A stretch of DNA of 63,940 bases, filler included, from Hausera hauseri (lineage: Eukaryota), in NCBI GenBank assembly GCA_046269625.1. It is 12 parts of 12 records of this genome, joined end to end, with 100 filler letters (N's around TTAATTAATTAA, not from the genome) between each part and the next. Parts side by side here need not be neighbours in the genome. Positions count along the whole stretch, not along the records: positions 40,725 to 46,240 come from JBJURY010237851.1; 11 more parts are not named here. One strand, written 5' to 3'. This document shows, in pieces, positions 7,758 through 61,887 of this stretch (position 1 is the stretch's first letter; the number at the start of each line of letters is the position of its first letter). Below the pieces are notes generated by a model. It was given only the letters and a program-made list of their open reading frames with translations. It was not told where the DNA came from and made no database searches. The translations under genes were made by a program, and so were the position numbers.

Positions 7758-7777
7758 CTTTGTATCGTATGGTCAAA

Positions 7778-23830: not shown

Positions 23831-24241
23831 GCTATTGCATTTAAAAAAACTTTAGAACGCATGCGCAGTGTCAATCGATTCGATCAGTGCTCCACTACCC
23901 AGCCTGTGACCCCGTGACGTAAGGCTACTGTTATGATTCGTATTCTCATAGAAATAATTTGTATTCTCAAACGATCATTGCACTTTGTATTCATAAAATT
24001 GAAATAACAAATGTAAACTTGAAATTTGTATTTATAAGCTATGAAGTTGTAAGTTTTAAAACTGTATTTCTATGGTTTTTTTGAGATTTCAAATATTTAT
24101 GAGTTTACAAATTTTAATGTTGCACAACTTCTGATTAATATGAACACAACTATGCTTTTGGACATACGTTTTTTATGACAGTTTCCTTACCTCATAGTTT
24201 ACCATTTCAAGTCACGGCGTAGGCTCGTCTTGCAAAATATC

Positions 24242-28245: not shown

Positions 28246-28249
28246 ACCC

Positions 28250-30622
28250 TAGGGTGCATCACACTTGTAGACCAAAATATTATGTTTCAGATTTCTTGCT
28301 ATCAGAGTTTCCAGTTTGTTGCTGTGTGTGCACAGAACAGGAGTATAAAATATTTCGTAAATCCAACGTGATTTAGAAGTCCCACCATGCATTTGACAAA
28401 AACCGAATATACAAAATGAATGCATTTTATTACCATTTTCAATTAGACAGAGAAAAATATTTACTTTAATTTACAGAAAATCACAACATATAGCATTAAA
28501 ATGCACTAGTGCACACTTGAAAGCAGACACATGTTCAGTTGTTCCCAAGTGATCTGATGGTTCAGTTTGTGATATCAAAGGTAGAGTTTTTCCTCATGAC
28601 TGCATTCGGCGACTTGCAGCACATTCTGATGATGTTCAGCCCTACGAGAAGCATTGACAAAATTTGTTGATAGCTTGACATTGCGTTCAGCAGCATCATT
28701 AAACACATTGACTGCTTGTTTTGCATCCTACACTGGTGTCCCACTCGCTAGCTGATAAGCGAAGAAAGCTTCTGTTAATCTACAGAAGGAACATTGTGAA
28801 CCAGAAGTCCAGTGCAACAAGGCCAGGCAGCCATGTGGACAACTTGACGTCAGGAAACTGTGATTTGCCCCACCTGTATCCAAAACGATTCAATGAACTT
28901 CGTAATTCACTGGCTGGCTGAACTTGCAACAGTGCATCAGCAACAGCTTAACGTTCCGGTGAAGACACACGAGTGCTGAAAAGTGACAGTAGCACCATTT
29001 CAGCAGCCACGTACCACAGATGCCGACTAAATGCTTTTACTGCAGACTGAGAAATGTTTTTGTCAAGCAATTGATACTGCAGCAGTCTTTTGAACAGCTG
29101 TAAGTCATTCCACGGTGCGTCAACTGCTTTCGTACGAGTAAGCCATCATTTGCAGTACACATGAGTCAGGAAAGTGACAAATGTTCGGACTTTCGGCACC
29201 TTATGTAAGCTAGTGATTGTTCCTATCATTGTTCAGTGCTCTTCTCCAGTAATTAAATCTTAAAGCAGTAGATTAGTTTTGTCATTCACCTGGCGTTATG
29301 AAGTGCACAAGTTCAGCGAAACTACACTTCCTCTTCACTGGCTGCTAGTCCCTCAAGAAGTCGACTACTTTAGCAATAGAAGCACTTGATTCATCTGACA
29401 TTGTATTCAAAAGAACGTAGGCTTCTGGGCTGTGATTAGGTGGATGAAGCACGTGAACATCTCCGGAACTGTGAGACACCAAATCCCAGTTACTGCACAG
29501 TCGAGTTAGGAGAATAACATCCAGCGATTTTGATGCTTCATTCTTCAAGTCGGCAAAGACGTGCTAAATCAAAGCCTCACCGATGTGATGACGGCATAAT
29601 GAACACAGAACTTCTCGTTGAAGTTTGTCATGGATTGTAATACATACAGCTGACATATGAACTATGTTTGCACTTGTTATTTCGAACGCCATGTTGATAA
29701 CATTGTTGCTGCACTTTCATTCAGTGATCAGTTTCATCTTCAGCTCTGTAATGATTGACCTACATGCTGATCTGTTGACTTGTGATAATTCGGGACTCCC
29801 AGTAGTTTCATCTGTGCCACATCACCAACATGCGCTGTGACTCTTTCTTCAGCCGCCAGGTGATTCGTCAAAGTTGGTGTCACCTTGCCGCCCCAGTGCA
29901 GTGTGAACAGCTTTGGAGGGTTCCATTCCTCCCGAATACTGCCAGTAATCTTACTGACAACCTTGCACCTGGCACAATCCTCACTAGCATAAAATGCAGC
30001 AACCATTTAAATGCCACTCTCACACTCAGATATCAGACCATAAGTATATGTTGCTTATACTGTCGGTGTCATTTTCAGTCGAGGTGCCAGTGACACGATG
30101 TTGGGATTACTCAGAATGTTTGCCGGAACAAAGAGTGACGTCCAAGTTTTCTTCTTGCAACTAGACGGTGTGATAGGTTCCAACTCATCTCATTTCCTTG
30201 ATCACTGGTTGACTCCTGTTGTTCAGCCGTGTCTGTCGTTATAATCAGACGGTGCGAAGCTGGTGACAACTGCTCTTTCTGTCGCCTCACCGTCGTTCTG
30301 CAGCTACGGCTTCGCGCTGATGACGTTTTTCAACTATCTGTGCCAATGTTTTATCGAAAGAACCGAAGCTGGATGAACGACTAGACTTCATTAACTGCAG
30401 AAATGCATGATCTTCGTCATCCTTGGTCAGACATTGTGCATCAGGTTGCCAAAGCTGGAATGTTGATTGCAGCATTTGTTGATTTTCTTCCATCTTTTTC
30501 TGCAAGGCCGGAGTACCTCTGCGATCTTGGGGGATGGAATGAAGCTTGTTGCTTGCATCCGAAAGCTTCACGATCTTCTAACAGGCACGACGCTTGGTCA
30601 CCATCGAGATGGTCACCTCTTG
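28250..30622 (-). mobile_element. hAT-superfamily (hATm-like) transposon, decayed
   Basis: LHWGGK (HWDGK-type), KLLGVP, CRHH, ALHNAR*MTK and HLWY motifs. Terminal TAGGGTG at 28250. Confidence 0.75.
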
Positions 30623-30959
30623 GTCACTAGGAAAGAGGTCAGGACTGTATGGTGGGTGAGCCACCAGTGATAATCCACATGAATCAGTTGTTGCCGTTGT
30701 CATGTGGGATGTGTGGATTGGGACATTGTCATGGAATAGCCATAATTCAGTCCTTCATCTTTTCTGCCGCTTTCTTCTTGCTTCCTTTATCAGTTGCACA
30801 TAATAATCAGAGTTGATTTTGACATCTGATGCAGTGCAATCCACTTTAAGAAAATCTTTCATGTCCCATAAGATTACAGTTGTGCAATCATTGCTTGGCT
30901 GCTAGTCTTCTTCAAAGCAGAAACTTTATGACGCTTCGAAACTCAACATTATCTGACAT
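30623..30959 (-). pseudogene. mariner (DD34D) transposase fragment with a large internal deletion
   Basis: N-terminus MSDNVEFRSVIKFL, then HDNVPIH...HPPYSPDLFPSD with exactly 34 residues between the two Asp. Confidence 0.88.
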
Positions 30960-31478
30960 TTATGATGAAATATTGAAATAGCACAATTTTTTGTCAAAAC
31001 AAAAGTAGCTTAGAAAAACAAAAACACTTTTCATTACCTATATATATTTAAGTATAATCACTTGCAATATCATTCTTATGTCATAATTATTTCTTGTTGA
31101 GTTTAAATACTTAATGGGAGCACCACATATCATCATCAACAACCAGTGCAGAAAAGAATATCAAAGAAGGCAAAGAATATGAATTTCATTGAATGAAAAA
31201 TATAAACATTAATAGATAAGTAAGCTAGCCTGTTCTTCACTCTATACACACGCATTCACAATTTCACATCAGTGATTCACTTCACATTAACTTTGTAACC
31301 CTATTGCCCTAAGAGATATTTGATATTACAGTGTGCAAATCATTGAAATTTGGCAACCGAACTTGACAGATTTCAATGNNNNNNNNNNNNNNNNNNNNNN
31401 NNNNNNNNNNNNNNNNNNNNNNTTAATTAATTAANNNNNNNNNNNNNNNNNNNNNNNNNNNNNNNNNNNNNNNNNNNN

Positions 31479-33742
31479 ATGCATGCACCCACACTAGCAC
31501 ATGCAAGTAAATCTAATCCAATAGATTTACACCAACACAAATATCAAATGAAAAGACAAAGAGTAACCACCTACTCTTTGAACAGGCCGTTAAAAACGAC
31601 CTGCTATCATTATGTTCTTCTTTTCAGCAACCACAATATCATGGACAATCTCAATACACCAGTTTACCAATTGGAGGAGACAGATATAGATTTGGATAAA
31701 TCAGATAATGAAACAAATACAAGGATAATCTCCAGCCTTAAAAAGAAGGAAAATATGAAATTCAGCCAACTCGACAGTTCTTCAGAATCAGATGCATCGA
31801 ATGAAACGGTAGTCCCTAACCCTAAAAGAAGGGTTATACTACCACCTAATCAGTCTATTACTTCTTTCACGTTCCAGAACCCGACTCAAGCATTCACAAA
31901 TAGTAGAGGAATCTTGAGTACAATTATTCCAAAACAGAGACTGGAAAATGTAAGAATGCCTGGATCCCAAGACGAAATAAGGAGAAAGTCTTTTACTTTT
32001 GCAGACCTACCTGAAAATAAAAGAATGAAACTAGAAGAACAAATCATCACAAATCTAAAAGAAACCGAACAAGATAGATTGAAGAATCGTATATGGGCAG
32101 AAATGTACCCAAAATTCGTCGTAATATATGACACTCACAACAATCTTTATTCTTCCAAATTTTACAACAAGCTGATTCAACTCATGGAAGATTCTTCTGA
32201 CTTAATGTACACCCAATGTCGCTATCTAGATAATTCATTGAAAACAGCTACCTTAAATGAAAGATTATTTCGGATCATCAAATTAGAAAATCCATTATAT
32301 GATGTCGACTTCGTAAAAATGTTTCAGCCAGAACAACCGTTCGAGAAAATACTAATACACGTTGCTTGTGGAAAAATACAATGGCGAGCTCAAAATGAGA
32401 ATTACGATGGAATCGATCCACGAACCAATACAATTGGGCCCAAAACAACAATGAAACTAAAATCAATGATGTTCCATACCGGTCTTCACTTCCGTGTTTT
32501 ACAAATACCAGTTGTGCTAGGAGTAGAAATCTGTCAATACATGAAGGAAAATATGGGATTAATGGAACCAATATTCTATAAAAGGCCGACGAAAGAGATA
32601 AATAATTATCAGCTAACAAAAGCTGTTAACCAACGATATTTAGCAGTCTCACTAGCGTACGTATGAGTGGCGAACCGTTACCTGTTTAAGTTATCATAGC
32701 AAACCAAGAACGGTTAATAATTTATCAGGCCTATATCAACCCCAGAAAAAGAATATCAAATACAAATGAGCATGTACACGGACTTTCTCTTCCAATAATC
32801 CAACAATCCGAAGACGAAGAGGAGGTCAGAAGTGAAATAATTAAATATTTACTAGGATACACTGTTATCAGTGCAAATACTAGAATAATTATCCAAGCAC
32901 TGAGAATCCCAGAACAATTCTTATTCGGAATGATCGATCTATTGGCTATAAGCAATACCAAAAACAGATTCAAGGAAGAAAATCTTAAAATCAACTTAAC
33001 CCAACTATCACGAGTTTACGGATATACATATGACTTTCCTAAAAACGCGGAAAGCATAATTCAAACAATAATGAATATTCACGAGAAGTTGACTAATACT
33101 TGCTCCAACGAAAAATTAGAACTAGAATGGGAAGCGCCACCAAATAATCTCATCGATTATGCTGACTTTAAAACGATACCCGAAAGATATCATGAAAAAT
33201 ATCAATTCGAAGTATTACAATCAGAAGATGATTCTAATAAAAGGACGAATCTCATTCAACAACTAAAAAACCGATGCGCTAAAACAATAAACGAATTACA
33301 ATCAACCAAGGAAGCGTCATCAACTAGATTATCTATTTTGATATATGGAGAAAAAATTCAGATAATTAACGTGAAATTTTTGCTCGAGCCACAAACGACT
33401 CAAAATCAAGAAAATCAACTCTTACCAAATATACATCATGGACAGTTAATAGGATTTACCTATCGCAATTTAAAATGCAACACATTGCATTTAGAATTAA
33501 TTGAAAACAATGCAAAAAAATTGTTAAATCGCAATGATGAGCCAATAATGACTCAACAGCCAATTCCAAAACCCATACAGGGAAGGATGATAAAATTGAA
33601 AGGTACTAGCAAACAAAAGATTAAAATGCTATTGTTCGTCAAACAAGATGAACTAATCTTGGAAAATCTTTATGGAATACGCAGTACTACAACAGTAAAA
33701 GAAGACGTGGACAAAAACTGTAAATATGTGATCCAATTGTGA
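31479..33742 (+). pseudogene. Orphan LTR-retrotransposon ORF3-position protein with degenerate DEDDh-like domain (copy 1; one frameshift and one stop at ~32660-32690)
   Basis: Collinear homology over its whole length with 43856-46228. Frame is open from the contig edge; likely ATG at 31641. Confidence 0.8.
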
Positions 33743-33880
33743 TTTAATTTGACTTTTCTGTGAAAAACTTTATATTCTTATCTTTTGTTTCTTTTTCTTT
33801 GAATTTGTACATTATTTTTGTTTTTGTATAAATGAAATCGAATTTATGTCAAATTTTTCTAATATGAAAAATTTTCGTTT

Positions 33881-34032
33881 AAGGGGGGGAAGATGTTGAG
33901 GTTAAGATTTTGACGAGTTAGTTAAATGTTACGAAACATTTTAAAGTTACGTATATTTAAATTCTTACTAATCAATGTATGAAATGATTGCAGAATTGTA
34001 AATTAAAAATTGTTGAGATGTAATGCTTAACA
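33881..34032 (+). repeat. Polypurine tract and start of 3' LTR
   Basis: AAGGGGGGGAAGA (33881-33893) followed directly by TGTTGAGGTT (33894). The LTR right end is uncertain; TTAACA at 34027-34032 is one candidate. Confidence 0.7.
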
Positions 34033-35143
34033 GGTTTTTTCAAGTTCTGCTGAATAAGATATGATTCACCATTATTAGTATTGTGGTAACTTTTGCCATA
34101 TTTTCATAATTTCTGTATGAGGTTTATGTACAGTTAATAGCTAGCTAATAAGCTTTAGCAGTAATAATGCTTAGTTATGTTGTTCCTATGATATAATCTT
34201 TTGTAATAACTTGATTCTTTTTCGCATTTAAATAAAGAATCAAATAACTAAAGACATTAAATGGCCTACCTTACTCTAAAAAGACTTAGTCAAATATCTT
34301 TATTTGGAAAATATGTTTTCAGGATGAAAGAATGATGCTTCTCACATCATTTCAGACAGTCCAGTTCTTGACATTTCAGAGTGTTTGTTTATTGAACCAC
34401 TTAACCCATATATGAATTGCTCAGGCATAAAACCAGTTCTTAAACCCAAGGAACAAACCAGTGCCATGTCAACTCACAACAGACAATTTATTTAAAATAA
34501 CCTATTTAGCACCTGTGTGCAGCCCACAGGTGCAGGGAGAAGCTCCCTCCTGCAGCCTGTCATGATCTCCGCTTTCTGCCATCTGCAGCTCTCTGATGAG
34601 GTTGCAGCATCAGAGCACGTTAGTTAAAGAAAAGACAAGGTGATAAAGTGAAAAACTAAAGTTTATTTAAAGTGCATTACAGTCAAAAATAGGATTAGTA
34701 AAACATATAGTTATTTTCTAGTGTAATTCATGGACTATAAACCAGTGCAGCAGCATATGCAATGCATATATGGCCATACACCCATACCAAAGTTAAAGCT
34801 TTAACCAGTGTTCTGTTCAGCAACCTGAGTTAGACATGAATAATAAAGGATAAGCCAATGGCACTACACATTTCCTCTCATGACACATGAGTCAGATTGT
34901 CTGTTAGATTGAGGTGTGGACAGATCTTTTTAAATATTTTATTATTTCGCTGCATGTTGGTACAGAGCCTTTTATGTCATAGAAATGATAACTGTTTGGT
35001 AATTCTGGCATAAGGCATCAGTTGTTTTGGTCACGTTTTGCACATTTTCTGGGAGAATTACTGCACGGGACAGCTTTAGGCTTTTAAAGAGGGTTCTGAC
35101 TTTATTGTTAAAATATTTATTTCTTATGGTGACTGAAGAGAAA

Positions 35144-35816
35144 CTAAAGCAAATCACTGTCAATGTGAGAAAAGATTTGATCATAAATAGCGGAATATTT
35201 CAATGCAAGCTTTTTCAATGTCACAATAAAAAAAGAACGAAACCACGAGTTCAACATTTTTGCTCTACCATGGGACGTGATGGTTTGTTTTAATGCCATA
35301 AAAATCTTATCAAAACATGAAACAGGGACAGGTTTGAAGTCTGGATCATAAGCATTTAGCAAAGAGATAATTTTTAACAACGTCACTTCTCTTTCAGTCT
35401 TAACATCATCAGAAAACTCCTTGACAACTTTTGAAATGTACTCCTTGTTAAAATTTTCTCTCAAAATATTGAAAGAAATAAGAAATTTAGGATCAATGTT
35501 TCGTTCCTTGTCCTTATTAAATCTTAATTCCAGACTGTCATTCTTTGCTTTAAACCAGTCAAGTTCTTTCTGGGTAAGTTCTTGGCGTAGTGATATCTGA
35601 GGATGTTTAATTTGTCTGGGTAAAGAAGCCTTGCGTATACACAAAATGACAGTGCAATAGACATTAAATGGTGTCTCTGAAAGCCTGCTGTGTTTTCTTC
35701 CTCGCTCTTCTAAACTTCCTAGTAGCTGCAAACATTTGTCATCATCTTCATTATCGATTAAAATCAAAAGTGGTTTGGGGAATGTAGGGTCTCCATAGCT
35801 CCTAATTTCATCCAGC
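35144..35816 (-). CDS. SAMD9/SAMD9L-like protein fragment (teleost-type), partial
   Basis: IRSYGDPTFPKPLLILIDNED, VILCIRK, LRQELTQKELDWF, ISFNILRENFNKEYISKVV and LLKIISLLNAY..VPVSCFD are characteristic of the SAMD9-family NTPase region. Similarity appears to stop near 35290. Confidence 0.75.
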
Positions 35817-42236: not shown

Positions 42237-43660
42237 TTAACAATTTGAACTGGTACCTTTCGAAATTTTTTGTCAGAAACCCAGTTTGAATATTAAATGG
42301 AATACGTAGCTTATTAGTTATGTTGGTTCACAGTCCAAAATTTCTAATTCTATTTAAGATATTAGGATTTCGGATTCTTGTCTCTCTTAAAGGAAAAAAG
42401 TTTGCGTTTTTTAACTTTTGGTTGAATAAGAAGATTTTCTTTTTGCTGTTTTAATTCCAACTGATGTTGGATCTCTTTATTAATTGCGTGTCTCGCAAAA
42501 AAGAACTCTAAACGTTCTTGAAAAACCCAAAGGTAATATTCAAATCTAATTTTCAAACGTTCCCAAAGAACTTTGATGCACATTAAATTTTTAATGTATT
42601 CTGTCTTTTATTTGTTCCCTTGTTTTATTTTGGTTCTATTCACTTACTGAAACCAAATGTTGAAGGAAGGAATTATTTAACCTTAATGTTATGAGTTTAT
42701 TACTTTTAGGTATCGAACGTTGGCCTACTATGGTTTCGGCCGTTCACGCTGTTAATTTGTGGGCAAGATTTTAGATTACTCAAAAGAAGATGAGTAAACT
42801 AACACAAATAATTTTTAAAATAAAAAGAAAAATAATGAAATTTTACCCGAATATCGAGAATACTGGAACTGAAATCTTTTATTTCTTGAAAACAAATATC
42901 GTCGGACCAGGAGTCGAACCCGGAGTGGACGTACAAATTTCAATAATAAAGGAAATGATATAACTTTTGAATATCTCGCTCTTAGCGTCAATTTGTTGAG
43001 TTAATTTTATGTTCAATTTTTTAAGTTTTCATTCTTTATTTATACTCTTTTTTCTTTTGTGGGAGTTTTTGTTACTTCTGTGGGTATTTTTTATATTTTA
43101 TGTGGGAGTTTTGATTTTACCTGGGGGTGTTTTTAATTTATTTGGGGGCGTTAATATTTTGGTGTGGGTGTTTTTATTTAAATTTTCTATACTACTGTCT
43201 TGTTTGACAGTAAATAACATTTAATTTACATATCAGACAATGCAACTGCTCATTTTAGCAATCAAACAAATGCATTTGCTTGTTGTAGCGATTATAAATG
43301 ATATTCAGTTAAACTTTTTCACATTGACAATTCATCGTCTAGCACCTATTTTTTGCACGTATTTTATTGCGTTTCAATTCACAATTTTTAACATCAATGT
43401 ATAGTTTTATTCGCATAAGCATGTTTTTGCAAATGCTTCAAATACGCAAACTTACAAAAGCAATCGATAACATATTTTTACAAATGCTTCTAGTAGCATA
43501 ATCAAATACTTTCAATCTAGAAGTTCATGAAAAATGTAGTCAAACAACACGTCACACTACAATAATTCTAAAAATAAAATTGTGAGTGTTGTAACAAAAT
43601 TGTACTGTAGTTAGTACTCTGACGCGCTAGTTTATTTGAACTCTATAGTTCGGAATCGTT

Positions 43661-43710
43661 ATATCAACCTTAACATATCATATATCAACCTTAACATCTC
43701 CCCTCCCTTT
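43661..43710 (-). repeat. Polypurine tract and start of 3' LTR
   Basis: Minus strand AAAGGGAGGGGAGA (43710-43697) followed by TGTTAAGGTTGATA (from 43696). The LTR start is duplicated 21 nt later. Confidence 0.72.
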
Positions 43711-43855
43711 AAATAATTTTTGTCAAAAAATTAAGTATTATCATTTCCTTTATTTCACAGGCAATAGTAAAAAAAAATAAAAATAATACAATAAAAAGAT
43801 GTTTTTAAAAGTGAAACATATTTACAATGAAAAAGCAGCATGAATCACAATAAAG

Positions 43856-46228
43856 TTAAATCTGAATTGTTATGTCATAAGCCGCGAATTCTTCGGTATC
43901 TGTTTGAGTTGCAGTTGATACCTTGTATAGGTTTTCCAAAATAAATTTGTCCTTTTTGGCAAAAATGATCATCCGTATCTTATTTCTGACAGTATTTGTT
44001 AGCATCAACGGTTTTCCTCCCCTTGGTTTGGGGATTGGATCCATATCCAATTGCATTGGAATCGGCTGACTATGAAGTATTAGTTCATGTTTTATTTCAG
44101 CGATTTTTTCTTTCTGTGCTCCTATGAAGGTCAGATGCAGAGTATGATGTATTGGGTGTTTATAGACGAACCCAATAACTTTTCCAAATTCCTTTGTAGG
44201 TATTAATAACCGCGTAGATGTGATAGTCGTTTTTGGCTTCATGGTATAAAGAACGTTTATTGGTTGATAATGGGTTCCATATATTAGTATTGATAATTGA
44301 AGGAAGACAGGGTTGGATTCTGGTTGATTTATCTTCAAAATTTTGGTGGTATTGTCCTTTAATTGCTGTATCGGGCATGGTTTTCTTTGTTCTATTTTTT
44401 CGTAGGTATATCCTTGATGATATTCTGCTGGAATTTTTGAGAAATCTCCATAATCAATTAGGTTATTGATGGGTGGGTCCCAATCTAGAATCCAATGTTC
44501 ATTAGTACAAGTTTTACTAACTTTGTTGTATATCTCGAATAGTGTGATGATGATCTGTTCTGCGGTTTTTGGGAATTCGTTTTGGAGTCCATAAATCGTA
44601 GGTAGTTGAGTTAAATTCAACTTTATCTTTTCTTCAACAAATCGTTGCTTTGAGTTTTTGGCAGCCAATAGATCCATAGTTCCGAATATAAGAGTTTTTG
44701 GTATTCTGAGCGCTTGAAGAATGGTATTAGTATTGACACTGATTATTGTGTATCCATACAAATATTTAATCAGTTCTTTACGAATTTCGTCTTCGTCCGA
44801 TGCTTCTTGTATTAATTGATTCGTTAATCCATGTATGTGTTCATTAGTGTTGGCTATTCGACGTCGAGGTTTCAAGAATGCCTGATAAATGATGAGTTGA
44901 TTCTCATCCGCTATTATGACTTCGATTGGCAGCGCATCTCCATTTGAAGCGTATGCTAATGTGGTTGCTAAAAACCTGTAATTTAAGGCTGTTGTTAGCC
45001 TGTAGTTGTGAACATCATCATTGGGTTTTTGGTAAAAAATAGGTTCTTTGAAACCCATATTTATATCTAATCCTTTGCATGACTCTATTCCGAGTATTAC
45101 TGGTGGTAGTAATACACAGAAAAAGAGTTTTGTTGGATGAATTGTGGATTTAATCTTCATAGAGTTTTTGGCGGTTAATGTCCATTTATCTTCGTAATTG
45201 TCATCTCCCGCACGTATCTGTATTTTTCCTCTGGCAAGATGTATCAGAAAACTTTCGATATCAGGATCAACTTGGAGCAAATCCATTAAGGCTGCATTGT
45301 ATAAAGGTTTCTCTATCTTTATAATTCGAAAAGATCGATCATTTAACGTTTTTGTTTTTAGGGCATTATCTAAATACTTGCATTCGGGATAGAAGATATC
45401 GACTGAGGTTTCTGTTAATTCGACGAGGTGTGAATAGAATTTTGCTGGATATTGATTTTGGTTCGATTCATAAAATTGTATTATTTTTAGTTCTTGTATT
45501 TCATCCATTGATCGATGTTTTAATTGATATTCATTCAGTTCTTCTAAATTGTGGAGCACTTGTTTTTGTAATTTAGTTCTTTTTATTTCAGGCAGATCTT
45601 CGGCACCGAAACTCTTACGTCTAATTTCTGTCATGGATTTGATTTTTTCTTTATATTCTGTTTGTCGTTTGTTGATAAACGATGGAGAGAATCCGCGCTG
45701 TGTTGAGCATCCTGCTAATGGATTCTGAAAAGTGAAATTTGGCTTCATTCCTTCTTGAGGTAGTATAACCCTTCGTTTAGGGTTAGGGACTACCGATATT
45801 ATAGAGACATCTGAATCGGAGTCGTTAGAGGATTTGTCTAGATCTGGATTGTGGTCCTCTGATTTTTCTTGAGTGTTCTCCATTTCATACTCGTAGATCG
45901 GGGTATTTAGCGTACTCATTTGACTGAAAAAGAAAGATTTGTCATAGCAGGTCGTTTTTAATGGCCTGTTAGAAGGGTAGGTGGTTACCCTTCGATAGTT
46001 CATTGGCTTTGTATGTCGGTGCAAATCTATTGGTTTAGATTTGCTATTGTGCTGTAATGTATGCATTAATACTATTGTTCTTGTTGGTGTGTATAATTTG
46101 ATGTGTGTATTTTTGGTATTAAATATTTTATCCCTTTCAACGTCGACTCTCCACTCCACACATGTTAGACATAATAGATGAGTTGACAATAACAAAGTTT
46201 TGTTCATGATTGCTCGTTTTTTGGACAA
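43856..46228 (-). CDS. Orphan LTR-retrotransposon ORF3-position protein with degenerate DEDDh-like domain (copy 2, intact; 687 aa from ATG 45919)
   Basis: Uninterrupted 790-codon frame, open to the contig edge. Homolog at 31479-33742. Followed by PPT and LTR start. Confidence 0.88.
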   Translation of the reverse strand: MSKKRAIMNKTLLLSTHLLCLTCVEWRVDVERDKIFNTKNTHIKLYTPTRTIVLMHTLQHNSKSKPIDLHRHTKPMNYRRVTTYPSNRPLKTTCYDKSFFFSQMSTLNTPIYEYEMENTQEKSEDHNPDLDKSSNDSDSDVSIISVVPNPKRRVILPQEGMKPNFTFQNPLAGCSTQRGFSPSFINKRQTEYKEKIKSMTEIRRKSFGAEDLPEIKRTKLQKQVLHNLEELNEYQLKHRSMDEIQELKIIQFYESNQNQYPAKFYSHLVELTETSVDIFYPECKYLDNALKTKTLNDRSFRIIKIEKPLYNAALMDLLQVDPDIESFLIHLARGKIQIRAGDDNYEDKWTLTAKNSMKIKSTIHPTKLFFCVLLPPVILGIESCKGLDINMGFKEPIFYQKPNDDVHNYRLTTALNYRFLATTLAYASNGDALPIEVIIADENQLIIYQAFLKPRRRIANTNEHIHGLTNQLIQEASDEDEIRKELIKYLYGYTIISVNTNTILQALRIPKTLIFGTMDLLAAKNSKQRFVEEKIKLNLTQLPTIYGLQNEFPKTAEQIIITLFEIYNKVSKTCTNEHWILDWDPPINNLIDYGDFSKIPAEYHQGYTYEKIEQRKPCPIQQLKDNTTKILKINQPESNPVFLQLSILIYGTHYQPINVLYTMKPKTTITSTRLLIPTKEFGKVIGFVYKHPIHHTLHLTFIGAQKEKIAEIKHELILHSQPIPMQLDMDPIPKPRGGKPLMLTNTVRNKIRMIIFAKKDKFILENLYKVSTATQTDTEEFAAYDITIQI

Positions 46229-46340
46229 TCTTTTTATTTCNNNNNNNNNNNNNNNNNNNNNNNNNNNNNNNNNNNNNNNNNNNNTTAATTAATTAANNNN
46301 NNNNNNNNNNNNNNNNNNNNNNNNNNNNNNNNNNNNNNNN

Positions 46341-48290
46341 TGGTGCAGGATGTTCGTGTTGAAAATGGTGTTGGCTGCTGTACTATCAGTAATAGGTGTC
46401 ACGCAGTTGGCAATATAGTATTTGTTACCGTATTAAACATTTCTGTATAATGAATGATTATAAAAATAATTTAAATCGGAAATTGTTTACTTCAGTATTG
46501 ACTTGCTGGAGACGATCGCCCGGGTGGTCACCAAAATGTGCTAATTTGATTAGGATTATTTCCGCACTTTAAGAAACATAGTTTGCAATCTACACGTAAA
46601 TTGTAGTGGGACAGAAAGTCTAATCCCAATATAGGTGTACGTACATTGTCTACTGTAAATTTCCATGTGAATGCGTTTGGAAAATTTGGAAGTGTAAAAG
46701 TTAATTTGGTAACACCAAAAATTTGTAAGGGTTCATCGGACGCAGTGAACAGTTGCTTTTGTGAAGTGAAACTGTTTTGGATATGTTGTGTTGGTGGTAG
46801 TAAAGAGATTGCTGCGCCGATATCTATAAGAAAGTTAATGTTTTGCTTTGTTAAAGCGACAACTGCTGCATCCAACGTGAATACAGCAAAGGAAATATGT
46901 CTGCTATCTTTTTGCAGGTTGTTGCCTTTGCTAAAACTTGCGGTGTGTCGTAGCGGCGAAATCAGTTTTTTGTAGCTCGTTAGCTTGGTCTACTATTTTG
47001 TGTCAGTTAAGTATTGTTTGTTTTATTGTGTGCTTTTGTGCCAAAGCTAGAGTGATAGATGCAAACAATGTTGCTTGTATTAAAGTCGGGGGAGTAAAAT
47101 TTACAACCGATGCAGCATTTCTGAGCATTATTACCAAATTTGTTATGGTATTAGCAAATAGACGATTGCGCAGGCCAAAGCGACCGTCTTAGTCGTTGAT
47201 TAAATACATTAGAGGAAGCAGCCCTAGAAAAACCCCGTCGAGGCAATATTAATTCGTTTAATTTTTCGTTTATGTTGTTAACTGAATTTTGCAACATTTC
47301 ATTTTCTGTGCGCAATTGTGCAATTTGTTGCTGGCTAATTGCATTTTGTTGTTGTTTGGCTGTTGTTAATGCCGCAGAGATGGTTGGTGATGTGTGTGAG
47401 TGCAACACTTCATAGGCCTTGTCCGCCAATTCAGCTACCTTTTCCAGTGCCGTGGAGTCTTTGACCACGGTAAGAAAAGCTCTTATTTGAAGGGGCAATG
47501 CATTTAGAAAATAGCGACGAAGAAGTTCTGGACTATGCTCAGATATAACGCCAAGAGTATTGAGATGAGACAAAAATGTGCGCAAGAATTCAGAAGGCTT
47601 CTGTAGGCCAACGGCGTTGTCGTTGAAGAATTTTTGAATGATTGAGTCGATTGTCGGCTCTGTGAGCTTAAGAATGGCATTATAAAGTTGAGCATATGGA
47701 TCGGTGTGCTGAAGGATATCAATGATATTTGTGATTTTTGTTTTGATGGAAGCAGGTAAATGAAAAAACAGGCTGTTGGCTTTAAATTAGGACTCGACCA
47801 CGTTTTGTAACTGGAGTCAGAATTAATGCAGTTTTAGTTATGTTTGGGTAGACTTTTGGCTGTCGGGGGAGTATTCTGTGCAGGGTGAATGAGTGGGGAG
47901 TGTGTGCTGTGTCAGAGTGTTTGCAGCACTTTGTTTGGGTAAATAAGTGATAGAAATCGGAGGTTTGGTGGGTTTGTCCGCGGAATCAATGGTGGGTGAT
48001 GAGTCCATTCCACCACGGATGCGGAAGTGAATGTTAAGATAAATGTGGGTTGAGGAAGATTGTAGAGTTTCAGCGAGGCGTACTAGAGATCCATTGTATG
48101 ATATAGAAGTTAGAGTAGTGAAGTAAGGTAGAGATGAAGATGTGAATAGCCGCAGTGTGTAAGTGTAATACTCTATATGTGTGAATGTGTTGGTTATTTA
48201 AAAAAGGAAAATGAAGTATGGAGAGATTTAATGTCCGGGGGCGTGTTGTGGGGCTGCAACGAAAAGTGTCGTCTGACCCAATGGTGCAGG
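46341..48290 (-). mobile_element. Ty3/Gypsy (CsRn1-like) 5' part: leader, gag, protease
   Basis: Gag KPSEFLRTF..LLRRYFLNALP..VAELADKA with CHCC knuckle. Protease FLIDIGAAISLLP..TPILGLDFL. Homologous to 16590-18060. Confidence 0.9.
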
Positions 48291-48684
48291 GTGGGCTGCC
48301 GGGACCTAAGCCTCGCCGCGGCGGGTCTTAAATTTCGGGGTAACCGAGGTTCCTGCATTTTTTGCTGTCTTTTGGAGGACTTTAACAGGTTCAAAACCGT
48401 CTTTGGACTGGTATGCAGCGATAAATCCGGGTTGAATAAATTTGGCATTAACACCATGGACATTATGACAATGGCTGAAATAATTGTCTCTTTAATTCGA
48501 ACTGCGTGTAATAGCATTTGAATATCTTTCTCTTGATGTTCTCCATAACAATAACAGGTTCCTCGTGTGTGTACAACCGTTTACACTGGTTGATAAACTT
48601 GTTGATGTACGTGACCACGCCATTATTTATTTCAGTATTCAACTTTTGAATAGCTTTATCAGCACAGTCAATTGCGAATTGAAG

Positions 48685-49245
48685 CGGTATAAGCTGATAG
48701 TCAATGACAGCTTGAACTTGTTCTTGATTGCCGGCATTAATGTTTGACCAAAACCAAACAGCTTCTTTGTTGATTTTTTCTTTTGAATCTTGCAGCAGTT
48801 GTGGGAAATGAGATAATGCCTCATAATGCAATACATATTGCGTTTGTTCATCAGTTCCCGCTAAAATATTATCGACTGCTTGCAATGCAGCCGTTTTCAC
48901 TTTTTCGTCATTATGTGACAACAGTGATACTAAAAACCGAACGATATCAGCATCCATAACCATTTGTATTTGATCATTTGCTCCATCAGTTAAATAAGAT
49001 AATGTCCAAACGGTATCGACCAAAATATTAGTATCTGGATTCTGAATAAGAAAGCGCAATGCAGGTAACAATTTACCGATGGTTGACAGACTAGGAGGCG
49101 GATCTTTCTTACGACAGAGATTGACGATAACACATGTAACGTTTTGTAAAAACGTTATTGGTACGTCCGTGTTTAAGAATTTTAATAATGGATGAACAGC
49201 ACCCAAATTAATACAATAATCACGCAGAGTCGGACCATCACCGTA
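48685..49245 (-). pseudogene. Importin-alpha (alpha-3/4 type) intronless ARM-repeat fragment
   Basis: [84 protein letters not shown]. Lacks the IBB domain and C-terminus, and has non-conservative substitutions. Confidence 0.92.
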
Positions 49246-49454
49246 ATTTAGCAAAAGCTGAATTCTAAAATTGTATAATTCCTCTTCCAATGAAAATTGT
49301 GTTTTGGAATTGATTCGGTTACATTCACTTGGCATTTGAACTTTTCTCGGTGGTGCCACTACGGCTACGTTAAACCCACGCAGAAAAAGTTTAAGATTCA
49401 CAATTGAGAAAAATATGAATGTTAACTTTGTGCATTCCTGTCACTAATTATCAG

Positions 49455-49997: not shown

Positions 49998-50519
49998 TTT
50001 GTCGCCATACTAGCAAAAGAAAAATTCCAAACTCGTTGCGAAAGACATGTTTATTCCCAACTGAAATTCTTTAATAAAAATCGGCAAACACAAAATTCTG
50101 AAGTGGTATTCACAGCTGAAATCAAAATGTCAAATTGAAAATTCTTTTAAATTCAAAAGAACACAAAAATCGTTTATTGTTTTAAACAAGATTTGCATCA
50201 ATTTATTTCTTTTTCAAATTCTCGCCATCATAATCAATATTCAATAAAAAAACGTCATCACCGAATTGCGGTTTCATCGGCACACTTTCATCGGACGTGG
50301 AAACATCGTTCCGTTAATTATCAGAAATAGNNNNNNNNNNNNNNNNNNNNNNNNNNNNNNNNNNNNNNNNNNNNTTAATTAATTAANNNNNNNNNNNNNN
50401 NNNNNNNNNNNNNNNNNNNNNNNNNNNNNNCAAATCTGCCGAATTTCCACCTCACGTCGAAACTAAATTCTCACCGGAATCATACTGTCGTTTTTACGAA
50501 TTGCTTTTTGTTATAGATC

Positions 50520-52150
50520 AGTTATCGCTAAAGACGATGAAGACATTGGTAGAGCTAAAGCCTTAAGATTAACAATTCCACTTAAGAAAAAGCTTCGGTC
50601 GAATGATGAAATCGATTTAGAAGATTAAAAGATGTCAAAATGGTATCCTCTTTGGCACTCATTAATACCTGAGATAACAAAGGAAGTTGAACGTATGTTA
50701 AAGGCCGACATAATTAGATCAAGCTATAGATCTTGGTATTCGCCCATACTTATGGTCAAAAAGAAAGGTACGACAAAACATCGATTTTGTATCGATTATC
50801 GAGCGTTAAACACCCTTATGATGAAGGATTTCTTTCCATTACCATCAGTGAAAGAAGCCTAGATAGGCTAGCCGGAGCAAAACGGTTTACTACGCTAGTC
50901 TTCAATCCGGATACTGGCAAGTGGAAGTAGAGGATGAAGACCGCTACAAAAGCGATTTTAAAACGCACGACGGTGTATATGAATTTATTGTTATGCCATT
51001 CGGGATAACTGCCGGACCAGCCATCTTTACTCGAATGATGAACAAAATACTTATGAGACTGGAACACGCGTTCGCGTACTTGGACGACGTAATCATCGCG
51101 TCAAAAACGGAAGAGGAACACTTAAAAGATATCGAAGACACGCTCATGAGAGTGGAACAAGCAGGATTGAAACTGAATCCTAAGAAATGTAAGTGGTCTA
51201 AAAATGTAGTATCGTATCTTAGACATATAGTTGGAGAAGGTGGATCGAAACCCGATAATTCATTCTTAAACAAAATATCGGACCGTATGGAATCTCAGAA
51301 TCATAAGGAATTAAGACATTTGTTAGGTCTATGTGGTTATTATGCCACTTATTTACCAGACATTTAGAAAATAAATGCACCTTTGTATCGTTTACTTAAA
51401 AAAGAAGTTAAATGGAAATGGACCGACGTCGAACAAAAAGCTTTCGATGAAATGAAGAAAATCTTAATCAGCGAACCAGTTTCAAGATATCCTGATTTTA
51501 ACCCACCGTTTATAATTAAAACTGACGCCAGTAAAGAAAGCATTGGATAGTGATTAGCCCAGAAACGAGACGATGAAGAGCTAGAGCATCCAATCGCTTA
51601 TGGAGAACGATCACGAAAGAAAGCTGAGAAAAACAAATCGGTTACGGTATTAGAAACGCTAGCTGTAAAGGAAGTTTTACTACATTTAACGTTTGTGTTA
51701 CCGACCACAAAGCTGTTACGACCTTAAAGGGTAGAGCAAATAATCCATTATGTAGACTCAATAGATGGATCGAAGAGATTTCACGATATAATATTGAATT
51801 TCAATATAAACCCGGAAGCAAACATGTCGACGCCGATGCACTATCATGAATCAAAACTAAAATAAGCGCAATTACTGTAATGAGAAATGCTCAACTTGAA
51901 GAACTAGTAGACTGGCAACGAGCTCTAACATTGAATAAAGCAATTAAAATTTCAGTTGAACAAAAGGACAAAGTTATACAGCAGATCATCGAGTTTGTCG
52001 AAAATTATATAACGCCAAAAGGCCACCAACTATGGAAACATTTGCAAAGACATGATCATAAATATTGCGTAACAGGAGACAAAAGCCATAAAAATGTATT
52101 GTATTATGAACGAAAAGGATGAAAATTAGTAATCGTACCAAAGGATTATG
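50520..52150 (+). mobile_element. Ty3/Gypsy (third family) RT-RNase H, integrase core deleted
   Basis: SPILMVKKK..RFCIDYRALN, MPFG, YLDD, IKTDASKESIG, TDHK, HVDADALS. Breaks off after KLVIVPKD. Confidence 0.92.
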
Positions 52151-52439
52151 GACGGACCATTGACCAGTCAACCTCAAATCGAACACAAACGATTCTTCCA
52201 AAAAGGCAACAGACAAAGTTAAACCTAAAGAAATCAAAACCATAGAGCCCCAAAAAGAACAAAAGACAAAACTCTCTCTCTTCGAATACATAATCAGAAA
52301 GAAAAGTAAGACCAGTAATAACCACGTAGAAGAAATGAATCCATCTACCAGCAGTCTCACATCTAATGCTAAAGAAGAAATGATAAGCCCTAAGGTTAAA
52401 TCGAAACGATAGAAAGCCAAAGAACCCCACGAACAAAAA

Positions 52440-53066
52440 ATGAAAATCTGTCGTTATGAACTTCCGAAAACAGAAGTGAATGTTCTCAGAAATAATTGGG
52501 AAGAACCAGACCCTATAGTAGTAACAGACTTCGGTCAAGTAAAGGAATACACCAAAATGTTTGTCATGATCGAATATTACAGTAATGGCAAAACTAAAGA
52601 AGCAATATCTTACGTCTCCACTGTCCCAAGGAGAATTGAAAGCGGAAATGGGTATGCCCAAGAAGATACAACAGATGGTAAATATTTAGCTCCAATATTT
52701 CAATCAAGAAACGGTACGAAACGACTAACTATTCCAGTAGATAGCCAAGTTCGTATTCAGTTGAAGAGACAATACAAAAGAACAGGAATGCCAGACTTAG
52801 ACAAACAAAAAATTGTAAAGTGTACTTTAGTAACCGTATCGGATGACCCCAAGAAAAGTTCCATAGACCCTAAACAAAAACAATTATACGGATATCTATA
52901 CCAGGACAAAAAGGGGCGTGTGTTCCAGCGGATTGAAGTCGATTATGACCTTGTAGATATAGATGGAGGCGAAAAGGAAGAATGCCCCATTTCTGATGCA
53001 GACCGCTATCAAGGATTTGTAGTGTTAGATAATAAGGATTTCACCTATATTGTCGGTATTGCTTAG
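52440..53066 (+). CDS. Orphan ~208-aa domain between pol and the PPT of a Gypsy element
   Basis: Intact ORF. The frame extends upstream through one TAG (52410) into a K/E/S-rich low-complexity tract. Lies about 180 nt before the PPT. Confidence 0.65.
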   Translation: MKICRYELPKTEVNVLRNNWEEPDPIVVTDFGQVKEYTKMFVMIEYYSNGKTKEAISYVSTVPRRIESGNGYAQEDTTDGKYLAPIFQSRNGTKRLTIPVDSQVRIQLKRQYKRTGMPDLDKQKIVKCTLVTVSDDPKKSSIDPKQKQLYGYLYQDKKGRVFQRIEVDYDLVDIDGGEKEECPISDADRYQGFVVLDNKDFTYIVGIA

Positions 53067-53258
53067 AAACGTGGACCCTGAAAAACGGGAAGACGACCTT
53101 CCCAGTATATAAGGCCGAAGCATACCGATTTAATTCGCGATCTCGGTGCAATGAGTCAGATTCGGAAGCGGACTTACGCTGACGAATGGACCTTTTAAGA
53201 TGCGGCACCTCTTCTGACGCAATGGGCGCATCCGAGAGTGCCGTTCAGGAAGGCGAAA

Positions 53259-54025
53259 TGTTATAGAAGGACGTAAATGGTAGAAATATACAAATGTAAA
53301 TAGAAAATGAAACCGAAAGTGAAACCGAAACTAAATACTTAGCGTTAGAAATTGAAAAGAAAAATTATTATTAATTAATCAGCTTACGTCCACAATTCTG
53401 TAGATATGAAAATAATTTATTAGGAAAAGACGATCATAAATTACTCCCACAATGATGAATGATTAATGTAATTTAAAAGAAGTTACTTACAAACTATTTA
53501 AAACCTATCGAGAAATTATTCATATCAATCGCCTCCAAATTGCCGACTACATAAGGTAGTTCAAATCACTAGAAGTCGAACATTAATAAGTAGTGAAATT
53601 GTATTTGATCGAGCTGTTGGAAAAGCTCAGATATCCAGATATTCTTGAAGATTGAAATTGTCCGAGCTATTGAAGAGCTCTACGATATTCGAATATTCCT
53701 CGAGAGATTCTGCAGTTGATATATTGAAAACTTGAAGCAATTATTGATTATTTATTGACGATTGTATCGTCTGATATTATTTATTATTGTTAATAAATAT
53801 TTGTATTCTAAAATCTTTTATAGTTTTTCGTCGCTCTTTAAAAATCTACAGATAAGACAAGACCTATTTAACCTTGCACAGGATTCACGCACATGCATGT
53901 ATCATAAACTAGTGCAAACATTCTAACGAGAACGTTAGGACTTATCTGCATTTACAAATCTTAATTTGAGTATAATTCATTGTTATAGTTGGGTGTTGTA
54001 TAGGACCCACCTTCAACCACTAACA
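53259..54025 (+). repeat. Complete LTR (767 bp)
   Basis: TGTTA...TAACA inverted termini, preceded by PPT-like AGGAAGGCGAAA, with AATAAA at ~53792, followed by TT and a PBS. Confidence 0.85.
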
Positions 54026-54027
54026 TT

Positions 54028-54044
54028 TGGCGACCCTAGGAGGA
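54028..54044 (+). promoter_or_regulatory. Primer-binding site (tRNA-Arg-type TGGCGACC)
   Basis: TGGCGACCCTAGGAGGA 2 nt after the LTR end. TGGCGACC is the start of the 412/mdg1-type PBS. Confidence 0.7.
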
Positions 54045-54164
54045 CAGTTTTCACTTGCTAGACCTTGAATTTTAGTGAAAAGTAACGACATATTAGCGAT
54101 CAGTGCTACCACATCGATAACGCAGTTAATAAGTGTCTGTAGCAGAGAAGCTGGACATTTTCAC

Positions 54165-56283
54165 ATTTGACTCTGAATCTGCCGGCGTACGACGGAGAAC
54201 CGGACAGACTTAATGAGTTCTTCAGAACCTATACATTGCACGCAGAGGGGTGCCGGCGTCGCATCTAGCGTAATGATTAAACGTTTGTCATTGTATTTGA
54301 AGAATTTTTTGCCGCTGATGCCTATAGTGAACTCACCGATGATGAAAAGAAATCTTGGTCTCCCTGGTAGGAGCCTTTAACCGAAAATTACTACGGACAG
54401 TAACTCCAAAAGAAAAACTTATGGCTTTCTAGAATATGATGCAACAGAAGGATGAATCGGTAACACAGTTTGCATTTGTACTGAAGAAACTTGCAAAAAG
54501 TTATGTGAATAGTTTACAAATAGTCAATATAGCTAAGGCTAAAGTGACGCAGAACGTGAAGCCGCAGGGAAGGCAAGCCCCTCAGATTTAGACGTCATGA
54601 TGATGACGCAGTTAATAAATGGCATCTGGTATAGAGACAGTGAAACAATTGATTTTAGTACGACAAGAGAATTTTGACAAAACCTTGCAATTAGCTCAAG
54701 ACTTAGAAATGGCATTGGATAGATATGCTATATACAATGATCGAAATGATCGTAATGATAGAAACCGGAATGATAATCGTGGTAGAGATGATAAGCGATT
54801 TAACAAAAATTATCGAAATAGAAATCAGAATAGTAATAATAATTCTAAATGTAATCGGTATGGTAACCGAAATTTTGACAATGACCGAAATAGCTCATTT
54901 ATCAAACCAAACTATAGTACAGATAGACGTTCAAATGGTCCTAGAAGTTTTAACAATGGAAACCTGTATAATGATAATCGAAATTATGATAATCGTCAGA
55001 ATGGGGAAAATAGACAATGAAAATTTGAAAGCAATCTACGGTAAAGAGCCTAGCATGATTATCGAAATACAAGATTTACTACGTTTTCTCAAAGGCCAGC
55101 CTGATACTAATGATTCCAAAGTCTTAATGGCTAGGAATGAGTATGAGCACAAGCTACGATTACTAGAAGTATATCATGGCCTTCGCCAGCCACAAACTGA
55201 ATATGAACGTTCTATAGCACTACCAAGGCTTATCGATATGGCACGGAAAAAGAATGCCCCTGCGTCTAATAAAGAGATGGAGAAACCGGAAAAGTCTCAG
55301 ACTTCGAATAAAATAGATTTAGATGCTTAACCGGAATATATGGTGAAAAAGTAAACAAAACTATAGAAGTCGACGAAGAAAAGGGATTTATAGAACCGCC
55401 AATACTTAAAATTACAAAGAATAGAGGCCGAAACCCATCATTTATGCGGAAACGTAAAGATCGTTTACGATCTCCCATGAATAAGGAAAAGACAGGCATA
55501 GTAAAAGAAACTGAAATCGCCCTAGAAAGCGACGTAGAGATCACTTTAAATACCGCGGAAAGTGCTTTAGTCACCCCAGTTGAAATAGAAGAGTTAGCAA
55601 AGTCTAAATGAAATAAATGATACATTCCCATTACCTACTAGAGAAGAATAGACAGAAAAAAGTGAGAGGTTTAATCCAAACTGTGGAAAATCAGACGTTC
55701 ACGGAAAAATGCTGATGAATTAAAGAGAATGAGAATTAATTGCTTCGACCCAGACGTATTGTAACAGAATCTGGAGAAACTTAAAGGGATGAGCCAACAA
55801 GTAGACATTTCTGGAAAACAGCAGCAGTTTGTGGAAAGATTATACAAAAAAATGAAACTATATAGTGCAGGAAACCTAAGCGAAGCTATAGACCTAGAAC
55901 AACCTGAAGAGATGTCACCAGAAACGTTACTAAAATGGATACACGAATTAGAAACATGGATAAAAGTGGAGTAAAACTTCCCGAGACGTGGGATAAACAT
56001 ACCGAGAATGTTGATGCACGAATAAATAAAGCTCAAGCATTATGGATTACATTAGAGGCCAATCCGAAACTAAAAAGGGTAACGCGTAACCTGGAGCGCA
56101 TCATGAATGAAATTAGATTCGAAATGGTTGAGAGGCTCAAAGAAAGACCAGTCAAGGAACGAAACCAAATTGATCTGGAAATGTTGGGCATAGACTCGCT
56201 GGATATCCCACCCTTAATCGAGATAATAAAAATTGCTTCCACCGCATGAAAACTATATACAAGTCTGGAAAATCGTATTAAGA
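54165..56283 (+). pseudogene. Gypsy gag with N/R/D-rich tract and long C-terminal extension, degenerate
   Basis: LPAYDGEPDRLNEFFRTY, QQKDESVTQFAFVLKKLA (MHR-like) and FDKTLQLAQDLE, located right after the PBS. Confidence 0.8.
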
Positions 56284-61339: not shown

Positions 61340-61887
61340 GGCACGTAAATGAACCAGATAAATTCGTTATAACTTCTTTATTTTCTAACCGAAGCTTATC
61401 GGATTTTGTTTCTTCTCGACATCGTTTGTACAAACTGTGGCACGTTTTCGGGATCCCGGTGATTGTAAAAATTCCTTACGTTAATTTTCTCAATGGTTTT
61501 GCTCGACAAGTCCGTCCATCTTTCTGGGAAATTACAACTAGCGACAATCGTCACTAATTCTGATAAATGATTTTTGATTATCGATTGACTACTGAACATA
61601 AGATCGATAATATGTTTTCGAACGTAAACTCGATCGTTTTCGGAAATAACATTGTCTATATTGTGATTGACTTTCCAATTTTGTTTGACGAAATTCTTAA
61701 ATGCAATTCTAAAGGAAATTTTCACGTTCTGATTACATTTACTGGTGATAATTTGGGAGATTGCTTTGGTAAAACTGTTGACCTTTTCCATTTGAAATAA
61801 TAATTCTTCGGCTGGTTTCCGAATTTCATTTGACCAGCACATAGGCGAATCCAAGCGTTGTGATGAATGGTTAACTGCATTCGACAT
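61340..61887 (-). pseudogene. CSE1L: Exportin-2 (CAS/CSE1) N-terminal fragment, intronless, frameshifted
   Basis: IRKPAEELL, AFKNFVKQNW, DRVYVRKHIIDLM.SS..IKNHLS, FPERWTDL. After a frameshift it reads GILKTCHSLYKR..ETKSDKL. Confidence 0.85.

Follow-up and report, generated by a model that had tools for sequence, protein, structure and literature searches.

The window analysed here is a stretch of 63,940 nucleotides from Hausera hauseri. It consists of 12 short contigs joined by N/TTAATTAATTAA spacers, and its content is mostly transposon debris. On the minus strand of one contig lies an uninterrupted open reading frame (ORF) of 687 aa (43856..45919, from ATG 45919 to the stop), whose product is termed P0001 and which an earlier note on this DNA had described as about 690 aa long. 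The start was placed at ATG 45919 because of an adjoining splice-acceptor-like site. The reading frame is unbroken up to the contig end at 46240, with further in-frame ATGs at 46207 and 46066, and the N-terminus may be longer. A signal peptide or an integrase tail was considered for the 96 codons upstream and rejected: variants occur there at all codon positions (4/8 third), and the hairpins explain the conservation.

A decayed copy of the ORF is present on a second contig (31641..33742, plus strand), within a collinear homologous stretch spanning 31479-33742(+) (tblastn E 1e-173). The two copies are 46% identical over 665 aligned codons and 58% identical over 153 codons in the core block (residues 313-475), so the best-conserved block is indeed more than half identical. 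The second copy reported previously is a true homolog, but it is not an intact gene. A frameshift and a premature stop (32664..32689, plus) interrupt it inside the start of the exonuclease domain described below. Its frame terminates at 32664-32666 and the stop in the homologous frame lies at 32687-32689; both fall inside the best-conserved block. The stop codon is followed, after 146 nt in copy 1 and 139 nt in copy 2, by a polypurine tract (PPT) and then TGTT(A/G)AGGTT, much as the noted spacing of about 140 nt. Upstream of the ORF ATG, each contig stops after 162-321 nt.

Selection on the protein was assessed in two ways. Between the copies, the proportion of nonsynonymous differences (pN 0.36) is below that of synonymous ones (pS 0.73, near saturation). 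Contigs from 4 of the 8 listed runs, none of the 8 being an RNA run, were compared with positions 42500-46240; runs X3-X8 hold small shares and were not used as evidence. Within the ORF, 19 variants were found among the best-supported 40 of 335 rows, which are not a random sample; 15 are at third codon positions (P 6e-5 versus one third) and 12 are synonymous. Because pN is lower than pS and the ORF variants are mostly third-position, conservation of P0001 at the amino-acid level in its lineage, dead domains included, is supported, in agreement with the purifying selection proposed before.

Residues about 313-476 (44492..44983, minus) correspond to an ISG20/ISG20L2/REX4-type DEDDh domain in structure models and profiles. 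Two AlphaFold models were used, both of moderate quality (mean predicted local distance difference test score, pLDDT, 50.6 and 66.3). Their best Foldseek matches were ISG20L2 (E 2.2e-7) and ISG20 (E 9.5e-7), and structural alignment of the domain with ISG20 (1wlj) gave Z 16.2 and a root-mean-square deviation (rmsd) of 2.7 over 154 aligned residues (VIA). The family profile, searched against known structures, matched ISG20L2 (E 2.8e-21) and ISG20 (E 5e-11). At the level of single sequences the signal is faint. P0001 has no match in Pfam or PHROGs, its sole PDB sequence match is a PolC exonuclease (E 0.057), and the whole protein gave only leads below 0.8 in the ESM Atlas, every one PF00929. The Pfam cut-off of PF00929 is passed by remote relatives of P0001 (P0005 and P0009-P0012; see below). 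An RNase H-like DEDD fold of the PF00929 ISG20/REX4 group is thus predicted by the models for the core block, which the earlier note had assigned to the DEDDh/DnaQ-REX4 pattern; the lack of such a fold, which the note had named as a refutation, was not observed.

The catalytic residues of this fold are absent. At the positions of the ExoI D/E, ExoII D and ExoIII H/D, copy 1 carries A318, T320, I400, K451 and I456, and copy 2 carries A, S, I, K and I. The MAFFT register is backed by hhalign of an intact-only profile against P0001 (prob 96.9, E 1.6e-10, 305 columns). P0001 lacks all five DEDDh catalytic residues and is, by sequence, catalytically dead. The loss of the active site that had been claimed holds at all five positions, but the ExoI register was off by one: D-A-E of the relatives corresponds to A318-T319-T320 and not to T-T-L. 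Close to the substrate side of the fold, dead and intact members alike keep P351-R-x-x-I and an HG motif. The net charge of the dead domain is 0.

ISG20/ISG20L2, SDN1 and PAN2, the solved folds closest to the family, are RNA-decay enzymes. This proximity would fit an anti-silencing decoy: by attaching to the 3' ends of RNA or to host partners, the dead nuclease would stand in the way of host exonucleases, of small-RNA trimming or of surveillance. Two inactive derivatives of the DEDD fold, Maelstrom and EXD1, are cited for a part in piRNA (PIWI-interacting RNA) biogenesis (PMC5408684). The identity to ISG20/ISG20L2 is just 12-16%, which makes faithful mimicry of a host partner surface doubtful.

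Upstream of the nuclease domain, residues about 142-291 (45047..45496, minus) are predicted to form an AlkB/prolyl-4-hydroxylase-like double-stranded beta-helix. The barrel aligned with ALKBH6 (Z 11.3, rmsd 5.9, 143 residues) and with prolyl 4-hydroxylases (Z 11.2-10.7; the best one with rmsd 3.6 over 137 residues) (VIA). About 20 AlkB/prolyl 4-hydroxylase rows (Z 9-11.3) are among the 50 matches listed, over model residues about 7-156, which correspond to P0001 142-291. These matches and the ISG20 match fall on separate halves of the model. At the sequence level the barrel was not picked up by the family profile search, and an ESM Atlas search with the barrel alone gave no usable match. In a motif scan of 11 barrels, made without residue-level structural alignment, no HxD/E was found in either window copy or in 7 of 9 relatives; it was present only in P0010 and P0011, at unshared positions. 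The barrel thus has the predicted extended double-stranded beta-helix fold of 2-oxoglutarate-Fe(II) (2OG-Fe(II)) dioxygenases and lacks their HxD/E...H triad. According to the models, it would be a second pseudo-enzyme domain of P0001, an oxygenase-like barrel without a conserved metal motif. It is an addition to the earlier note, which had not recognised it.

Residues N185, L187, K188, R195, H227, G231 and E279 of the barrel are kept in 9-11 of 11 sequences, dead and intact alike. Such a set could suggest that P0001 is still an enzyme which works through a relocated site, for example N185-L-K188 together with R195, H227, G231 and E279. We regard this as very improbable, as 9 of 11 barrels are without HxD/E, the matches in P0010 and P0011 are unshared in position and the five DEDDh residues are all replaced (A, T, I, K, I). 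The net charge of the barrel is 0 to +2 in the window copies and +2 to +8 in intact relatives. The neutral charge of both domains would fit structural modules that bind proteins and not RNA, in which case P0001 would be a scaffold for proteins or part of a particle. In poxviruses, several proteins with an inactivated prolyl-hydroxylase fold are retained in non-enzymatic roles (10.1101/2022.11.22.517515), and poxvirus proteins are among the BFVD matches (E about 1e-4). Retention of the P351-R-x-x-I and HG motifs near the substrate side in both dead and intact members argues against a scaffold, as does the conservation in both copies of a nuclear localisation signal (NLS)-like motif. On balance we consider a scaffold unlikely.

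The regions flanking the two folds are modelled with low confidence. The acidic N-terminal region comprises residues 1-135 (45515..45919, minus), of which 1-105 are without a confident model (pLDDT <50). A bipartite NLS-like pattern, RR-x11-KRxK, occupies residues 100-116 (45572..45622, minus) in both copies and includes the RRKSF motif that had been pointed out earlier. It fits the classical bipartite NLS consensus. Its codons have diverged at the background rate (7/15 identical versus 48% background), and it is probably a better protein-level NLS candidate than PNPKRR. The latter, previously described as NLS-like, is conserved in both copies, but a conserved hairpin at the nucleotide level (hairpin 3, below) accounts for at least part of this conservation. 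The C-terminal region, residues about 477-687 (43859..44491, minus), is conserved only between the window copies (34% identical, E 4e-34), has pLDDT <50 and is unmatched by the five remote relatives found by phmmer. No transmembrane anchor was seen; in Kyte-Doolittle averages over 19 residues the maximum is 1.69, reached at residues 260-278, where the model has beta-strands, and the C-part of copy 2 reaches 1.26. Without an anchor, and with modelled folds that are a double-stranded beta-helix and a DEDDh domain and not a fusion glycoprotein, P0001 is not an Env protein, as had been concluded before.

Three hairpins, two of them with compensatory changes, and an acceptor-like site are further features absent from the earlier description. 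The 102 nt upstream of the ATG are 81% identical between the copies. Hairpin 1 (46021..46044, minus) has a perfect 9-bp stem and a 6-nt loop, with one compensatory change relative to copy 2 (31507-31530). Hairpin 2 (45972..45993, minus) has a perfect 8-bp stem and an ACCACC loop, with two compensatory changes relative to copy 2 (31557-31580). These hairpins upstream of the ATG scored z -5.5 and -7.7, and 0/200 shuffles were equally stable. Across both copies, 42/42 cells of the stems are paired, with 3 pairs changed on both sides. Hairpin 3 (45759..45794, minus; copy 2 counterpart 31807-31843) lies inside the ORF and codes for VPNPKRRVILP. It is identical at 36 of 37 nt, the single change being in the loop, with z -3.6 and -4.0; 10 of its 12 same-residue codons are identical versus 48% background (P 0.013, uncorrected). 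It holds CCCTAACCCTAA and AGGGTTA (45766-45790, minus), which we take to be readable as TTAGGG-type telomeric repeat units. Rfam returned one chance-level match (E 0.58). A fourth perfect hairpin, whose loop is again the ACCACC of hairpin 2, is found in copy 1 at 45094-45115 (minus) and is missing from copy 2.

The splice-acceptor-like site, a pyrimidine tract followed by CAG, lies 4 nt before the ATG in copy 1 (45924..45937, minus) and 13 nt before it, in the same phase, in copy 2 (31614-31627, plus). In runs X1 and X2, other contigs also run on into the T-tract and CAG at this site. Loose ends of X1 at 45944 show, on the minus strand, the T-tract and CAG, and spacers of variable sequence separate 45793 from 45944 where contigs link the two. 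Summed depth in X1, which is not copy number, is 2873-9290 over 45750-46240 (the hairpin/acceptor cassette) versus 175-678 over 43875-45749. This says that many more diverged elements carry the cassette than carry the P0001 ORF at 80% identity. A decoy role of the dead nuclease would leave the conserved hairpin cassette at the acceptor unexplained.

The 3' side of the ORF points to a long terminal repeat (LTR) element. In copy 1 the PPT (43697..43710, minus) is directly followed by a putative LTR head, TGTTAAGGTT (43687..43696, minus), which is repeated at 43675. In copy 2 the PPT and the putative LTR head TGTTGAGGTT occupy 33881..33903 (plus). A PPT followed by a TG LTR start is thus seen in both copies. 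In each copy the PPT is immediately preceded by an AT-rich inverted repeat (43714-43733 and 33851-33874), which may be due to chance. A gag/protease remnant at 46531-47786 was considered as the upstream part of the P0001 element and rejected, as it is on another contig.

P0001 could also lie outside an autonomous LTR element, as a domesticated host gene or as cargo of a non-autonomous or other repeat. Neither contig has pol or an LTR pair, only 37 nt are alignable between the copies around the PPT and head, and the far greater abundance of the cassette than of the ORF in X1 could mean varied cargo behind a fixed cassette. We consider this origin improbable, since the ORF is intronless, the PPT and TG head occur in both copies, one copy is decayed, many variant contigs exist in X1 and a homolog is found directly behind pol in a metagenomic locus, L001. 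From the PPT and the relative in L001, we infer that the P0001 gene is a member of an LTR element; the family is likely of Ty3/gypsy type, with P0001 as a spliced accessory gene. It is highly probable that P0001 is the product of a retroelement accessory gene of DEDDh type that is catalytically dead and under selection.

Relatives of P0001 were sought to place these features. Phmmer against 1.84 billion representatives gave 5 relatives (E 7e-7 to 7e-4) covering P0001 residues 139-484, and 5 further clusters came from a profile search (8 matches from 6550 candidates), which makes 10 remote clusters. The phmmer values and the profile comparison establish the homology, which extends over both domains in intact-motif relatives. 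D-A-E, D/E and H-x4-D are kept in 7/10 relatives and degenerate in 3/10, counting P0003, which ends before ExoII/III. The intact relative P0008, used as a single tblastn query, found no window match at E 0.05. In trees of either domain, a single branch, with support 88/91 and 85/98, parts the dead rows from the intact ones. The trees have 11 and 12 rows, were built without the columns of the catalytic motifs, are unrooted and carry flagged long branches; they fit one split, short of proof, and do not show a single loss of catalysis. A word-index search, insensitive for such relatives, gave 0/7993 candidates with P0001 and 1/7990 with a 13-row alignment. Among viral contigs 0/29 and 0/26 pattern matches were confirmed, and a phage collection gave no match.

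A metagenome search with P0008 yielded one locus, L001, from 183 pattern matches. It contains a frame of 3012+ aa with a PF24664 Monjiviricetes-type fusion glycoprotein (E 8.7e-84), proteases, reverse transcriptase (RT), RNase H and integrase, the glycoprotein being in frame and upstream of protease-RT-integrase. Three small ORFs (222, 434 and about 87 aa) follow pol, each preceded by a T-rich tract and AG; one is the exonuclease gene, with an intact site and about 20% identity to P0001. Because a fusion glycoprotein already sits before pol, the exonuclease gene in L001 is by its layout an accessory ORF and not an Env substitute. The "Env position" assigned to the ORF in the earlier note is therefore wrong for the sole relative with context. 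The L001 polyprotein (2-9040) also has two tandem aspartic-protease-like repeats, and about 400 residues after the integrase with hydrophobic segments. The window's best match to it (42% identity, E 9e-75) is an RT/RNase H remnant at 50431-56283; after it come two frames without annotation, 52413-53063 and 54619-55327.

We tentatively favour, at somewhat less than even chance, a role like that of CERV in Cer1: P0001 would be a nuclear adaptor of spliced origin that binds RNA without catalysis, its target being the unspliced RNA of the element itself. This reading draws on the 3' position, the acceptor, the NLS pattern, the nucleic-acid-binding folds, the splicing-removable hairpins and the CERV precedent. 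P0001 would be made from spliced RNA via the acceptor-like site at 45924, imported into the nucleus through RR-x11-KRxK and bound to RNA, with the hairpin cluster as its target. The adaptor would help the element's unspliced RNA to survive or to leave the nucleus. As hairpins 1 and 2 are upstream of the acceptor, they would be confined to unspliced RNA, as a response element would be. Historically, the exonuclease of an ancestral element may have been active and its fused barrel already without metal; catalysis would later have been lost in at least one lineage, and the P0001 lineage would have gained the C-terminal region.

Several observations weigh against the adaptor. The charge of the dead DEDDh domain (0) and of the barrel (0 to +2) does not obviously suggest RNA binding by composition, and the models are only of moderate quality. 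The hairpins may serve the element in packaging or splicing, unlinked to P0001, and in the covariation control 83/500 shuffles reach the observed value, two sequences having no power. A bipartite NLS at the equivalent position is absent from the remote relatives. For a leucine-rich nuclear export signal (NES), the one pattern tried had no match common to both copies, which counts against a strict Rev/CRM1 route. Neither window contig, each stopping shortly upstream of the ATG, carries gag/pol or an LTR pair, and X1 depth falls to 24-31 beyond the LTR head (43250-43624), where a long repeated LTR is not seen. In L001, no LTR pair, no PPT/TG head after the ORFs and none of the three hairpins were found. 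Behind the adaptor, the anti-silencing or decoy role ranks second and is distinctly less probable.

Other features of the window were recorded. An intronless importin-alpha-like (Arm repeats) fragment (48463-49440, minus) lies just upstream of the gag/protease remnant, and an intronless importin-beta N-terminal-like fragment is found at 61396-61893 (minus). A 162-aa ORF at 6555-7043 (plus), starting MATGFIDIEAF, is DEDD-like by eye, without support in Pfam or PHROGs; it follows a Gypsy pol remnant downstream, in antisense orientation to it. Decayed frames at 14223-15711 (plus) resemble a Polinton-type DNA polymerase region by eye, with no Pfam match. Behind the copy 2 LTR head, 34260-35816 has a CpG observed/expected ratio (o/e) of 0.30 versus about 1.0 in the ORF, and includes a SAMD9-like frame (35147-35815, minus; E 4e-8 to human SAMD9). 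The contig may be chimeric with vertebrate-like DNA, or the element may lie beside such a gene. Further CpG-poor stretches occur at 20714-24821 and 28200-31378 (o/e 0.57-0.59), with an L1 ORF1-like frame at 24242-24766; the assembly may mix two organisms.

Comparison with known systems separates what is shared from what is particular to P0001. The bdelloid rotifer LTR retrotransposons Juno/Vesta and the Athena/Terminon elements carry a DEDDy ORF3 with invariant residues intact (DEDD to DEED), for which splicing is described as typical (Rodriguez et al. 2017, PMC5408684). As described there, these genes too code for an exonuclease of the DEDD superfamily, lie on the 3' side of pol in LTR elements and are not Env. 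Unlike these RNase D-like DEDDy proteins, P0001 is of the ISG20/REX4 DEDDh type, barrel-fused and dead, and its relatives carry H-x4-D and match ISG20L2 best. With the ISG20/ISG20L2/REX4 DEDDh exoribonucleases (1wlj, 7yw5) it shares the fold, but it is without their catalytic residues and has extra domains.

In orchids, Gypsy elements contain an AlkB-domain ORF; its product is close to the AlkB of plants, is active as a demethylase and has been proposed to counter host surveillance (PMC9289625). This precedent favours a decoy, and a dead AlkB-like barrel may, in a variant of that role, shield methylated RNA. As in the orchid ORF and the poxvirus prolyl hydroxylases (10.1101/2022.11.22.517515), a 2OG-Fe(II) oxygenase fold is carried by a mobile element or virus. 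Unlike the orchid protein, as reported, the P0001 barrel is joined to a DEDDh domain, has no metal motif and finds no match in Pfam or the atlas. DEDD exonuclease ORFs (intact DEDDy) and an active AlkB ORF in LTR elements are therefore already known; the fusion of a dead DEDDh domain to a metal-less barrel appears to be new. No report of a barrel and DEDDh fusion in retroelements was found in the literature searched, including PMC3985635, though subscription journals, Repbase and supplements may bear on this.

The layout of L001 also has precedents. Env-before-pol in frame is described for nematode, bryozoan and flatworm errantiviruses (Chary and Hayashi, PMC13524379) and for Burro/GYPSM1 (Arkhipova and Yushenova, PMC6431247). 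L001 resembles Burro and the GAG-ENV-POL errantiviruses (gB-type Env) in having an in-frame fusion glycoprotein before protease-RT-RNase H-integrase and in its extra ORFs. The main text of the errantivirus article, supplements aside, does not mention exonuclease, nuclease or AlkB (PMC13524379), and the extra domains described for Burro are MATH, BIR, BCL2, ankyrin, AAA and dUTPase, with no DEDD or oxygenase (PMC6431247). It is conceivable, though doubtful, that one lineage of envelope-bearing animal retroelements built a Rev-like regulator from two captured enzyme folds, an ISG20-like exonuclease and an AlkB-like barrel. These would have been inactivated stepwise (sister elements keep an active nuclease) and paired with a hairpin response element at the acceptor, as an independent complex-retrovirus-style circuit made of pseudo-enzymes. 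Little has been done to catalogue the accessory genes that retroelements of invertebrates carry, and a role has been tested for few of them. Here the two-domain core occurs both with an intact and with a dead active site, a natural pair in which the gain from an RNA exonuclease may be compared with what remains after catalysis is lost.

The functional model proposed for P0001 is CERV of the C. elegans element Cer1, a spliced nuclear protein needed for genomic RNA export, whose GTPase-like domain lacks hydrolysis residues (Sun et al. 2023, PMC10309623). Like CERV as described there, P0001 is probably an accessory protein of an LTR element with an enzyme-like domain without catalytic residues, a candidate NLS and putative splicing. 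CERV differs in its G-protein mimic and Cys-rich ring domain, a candidate NES and exons common with gag, and no homology is claimed. If P0001 binds the hairpins, Ty3/gypsy elements would have two Rev-like systems of independent origin, CERV and this one.

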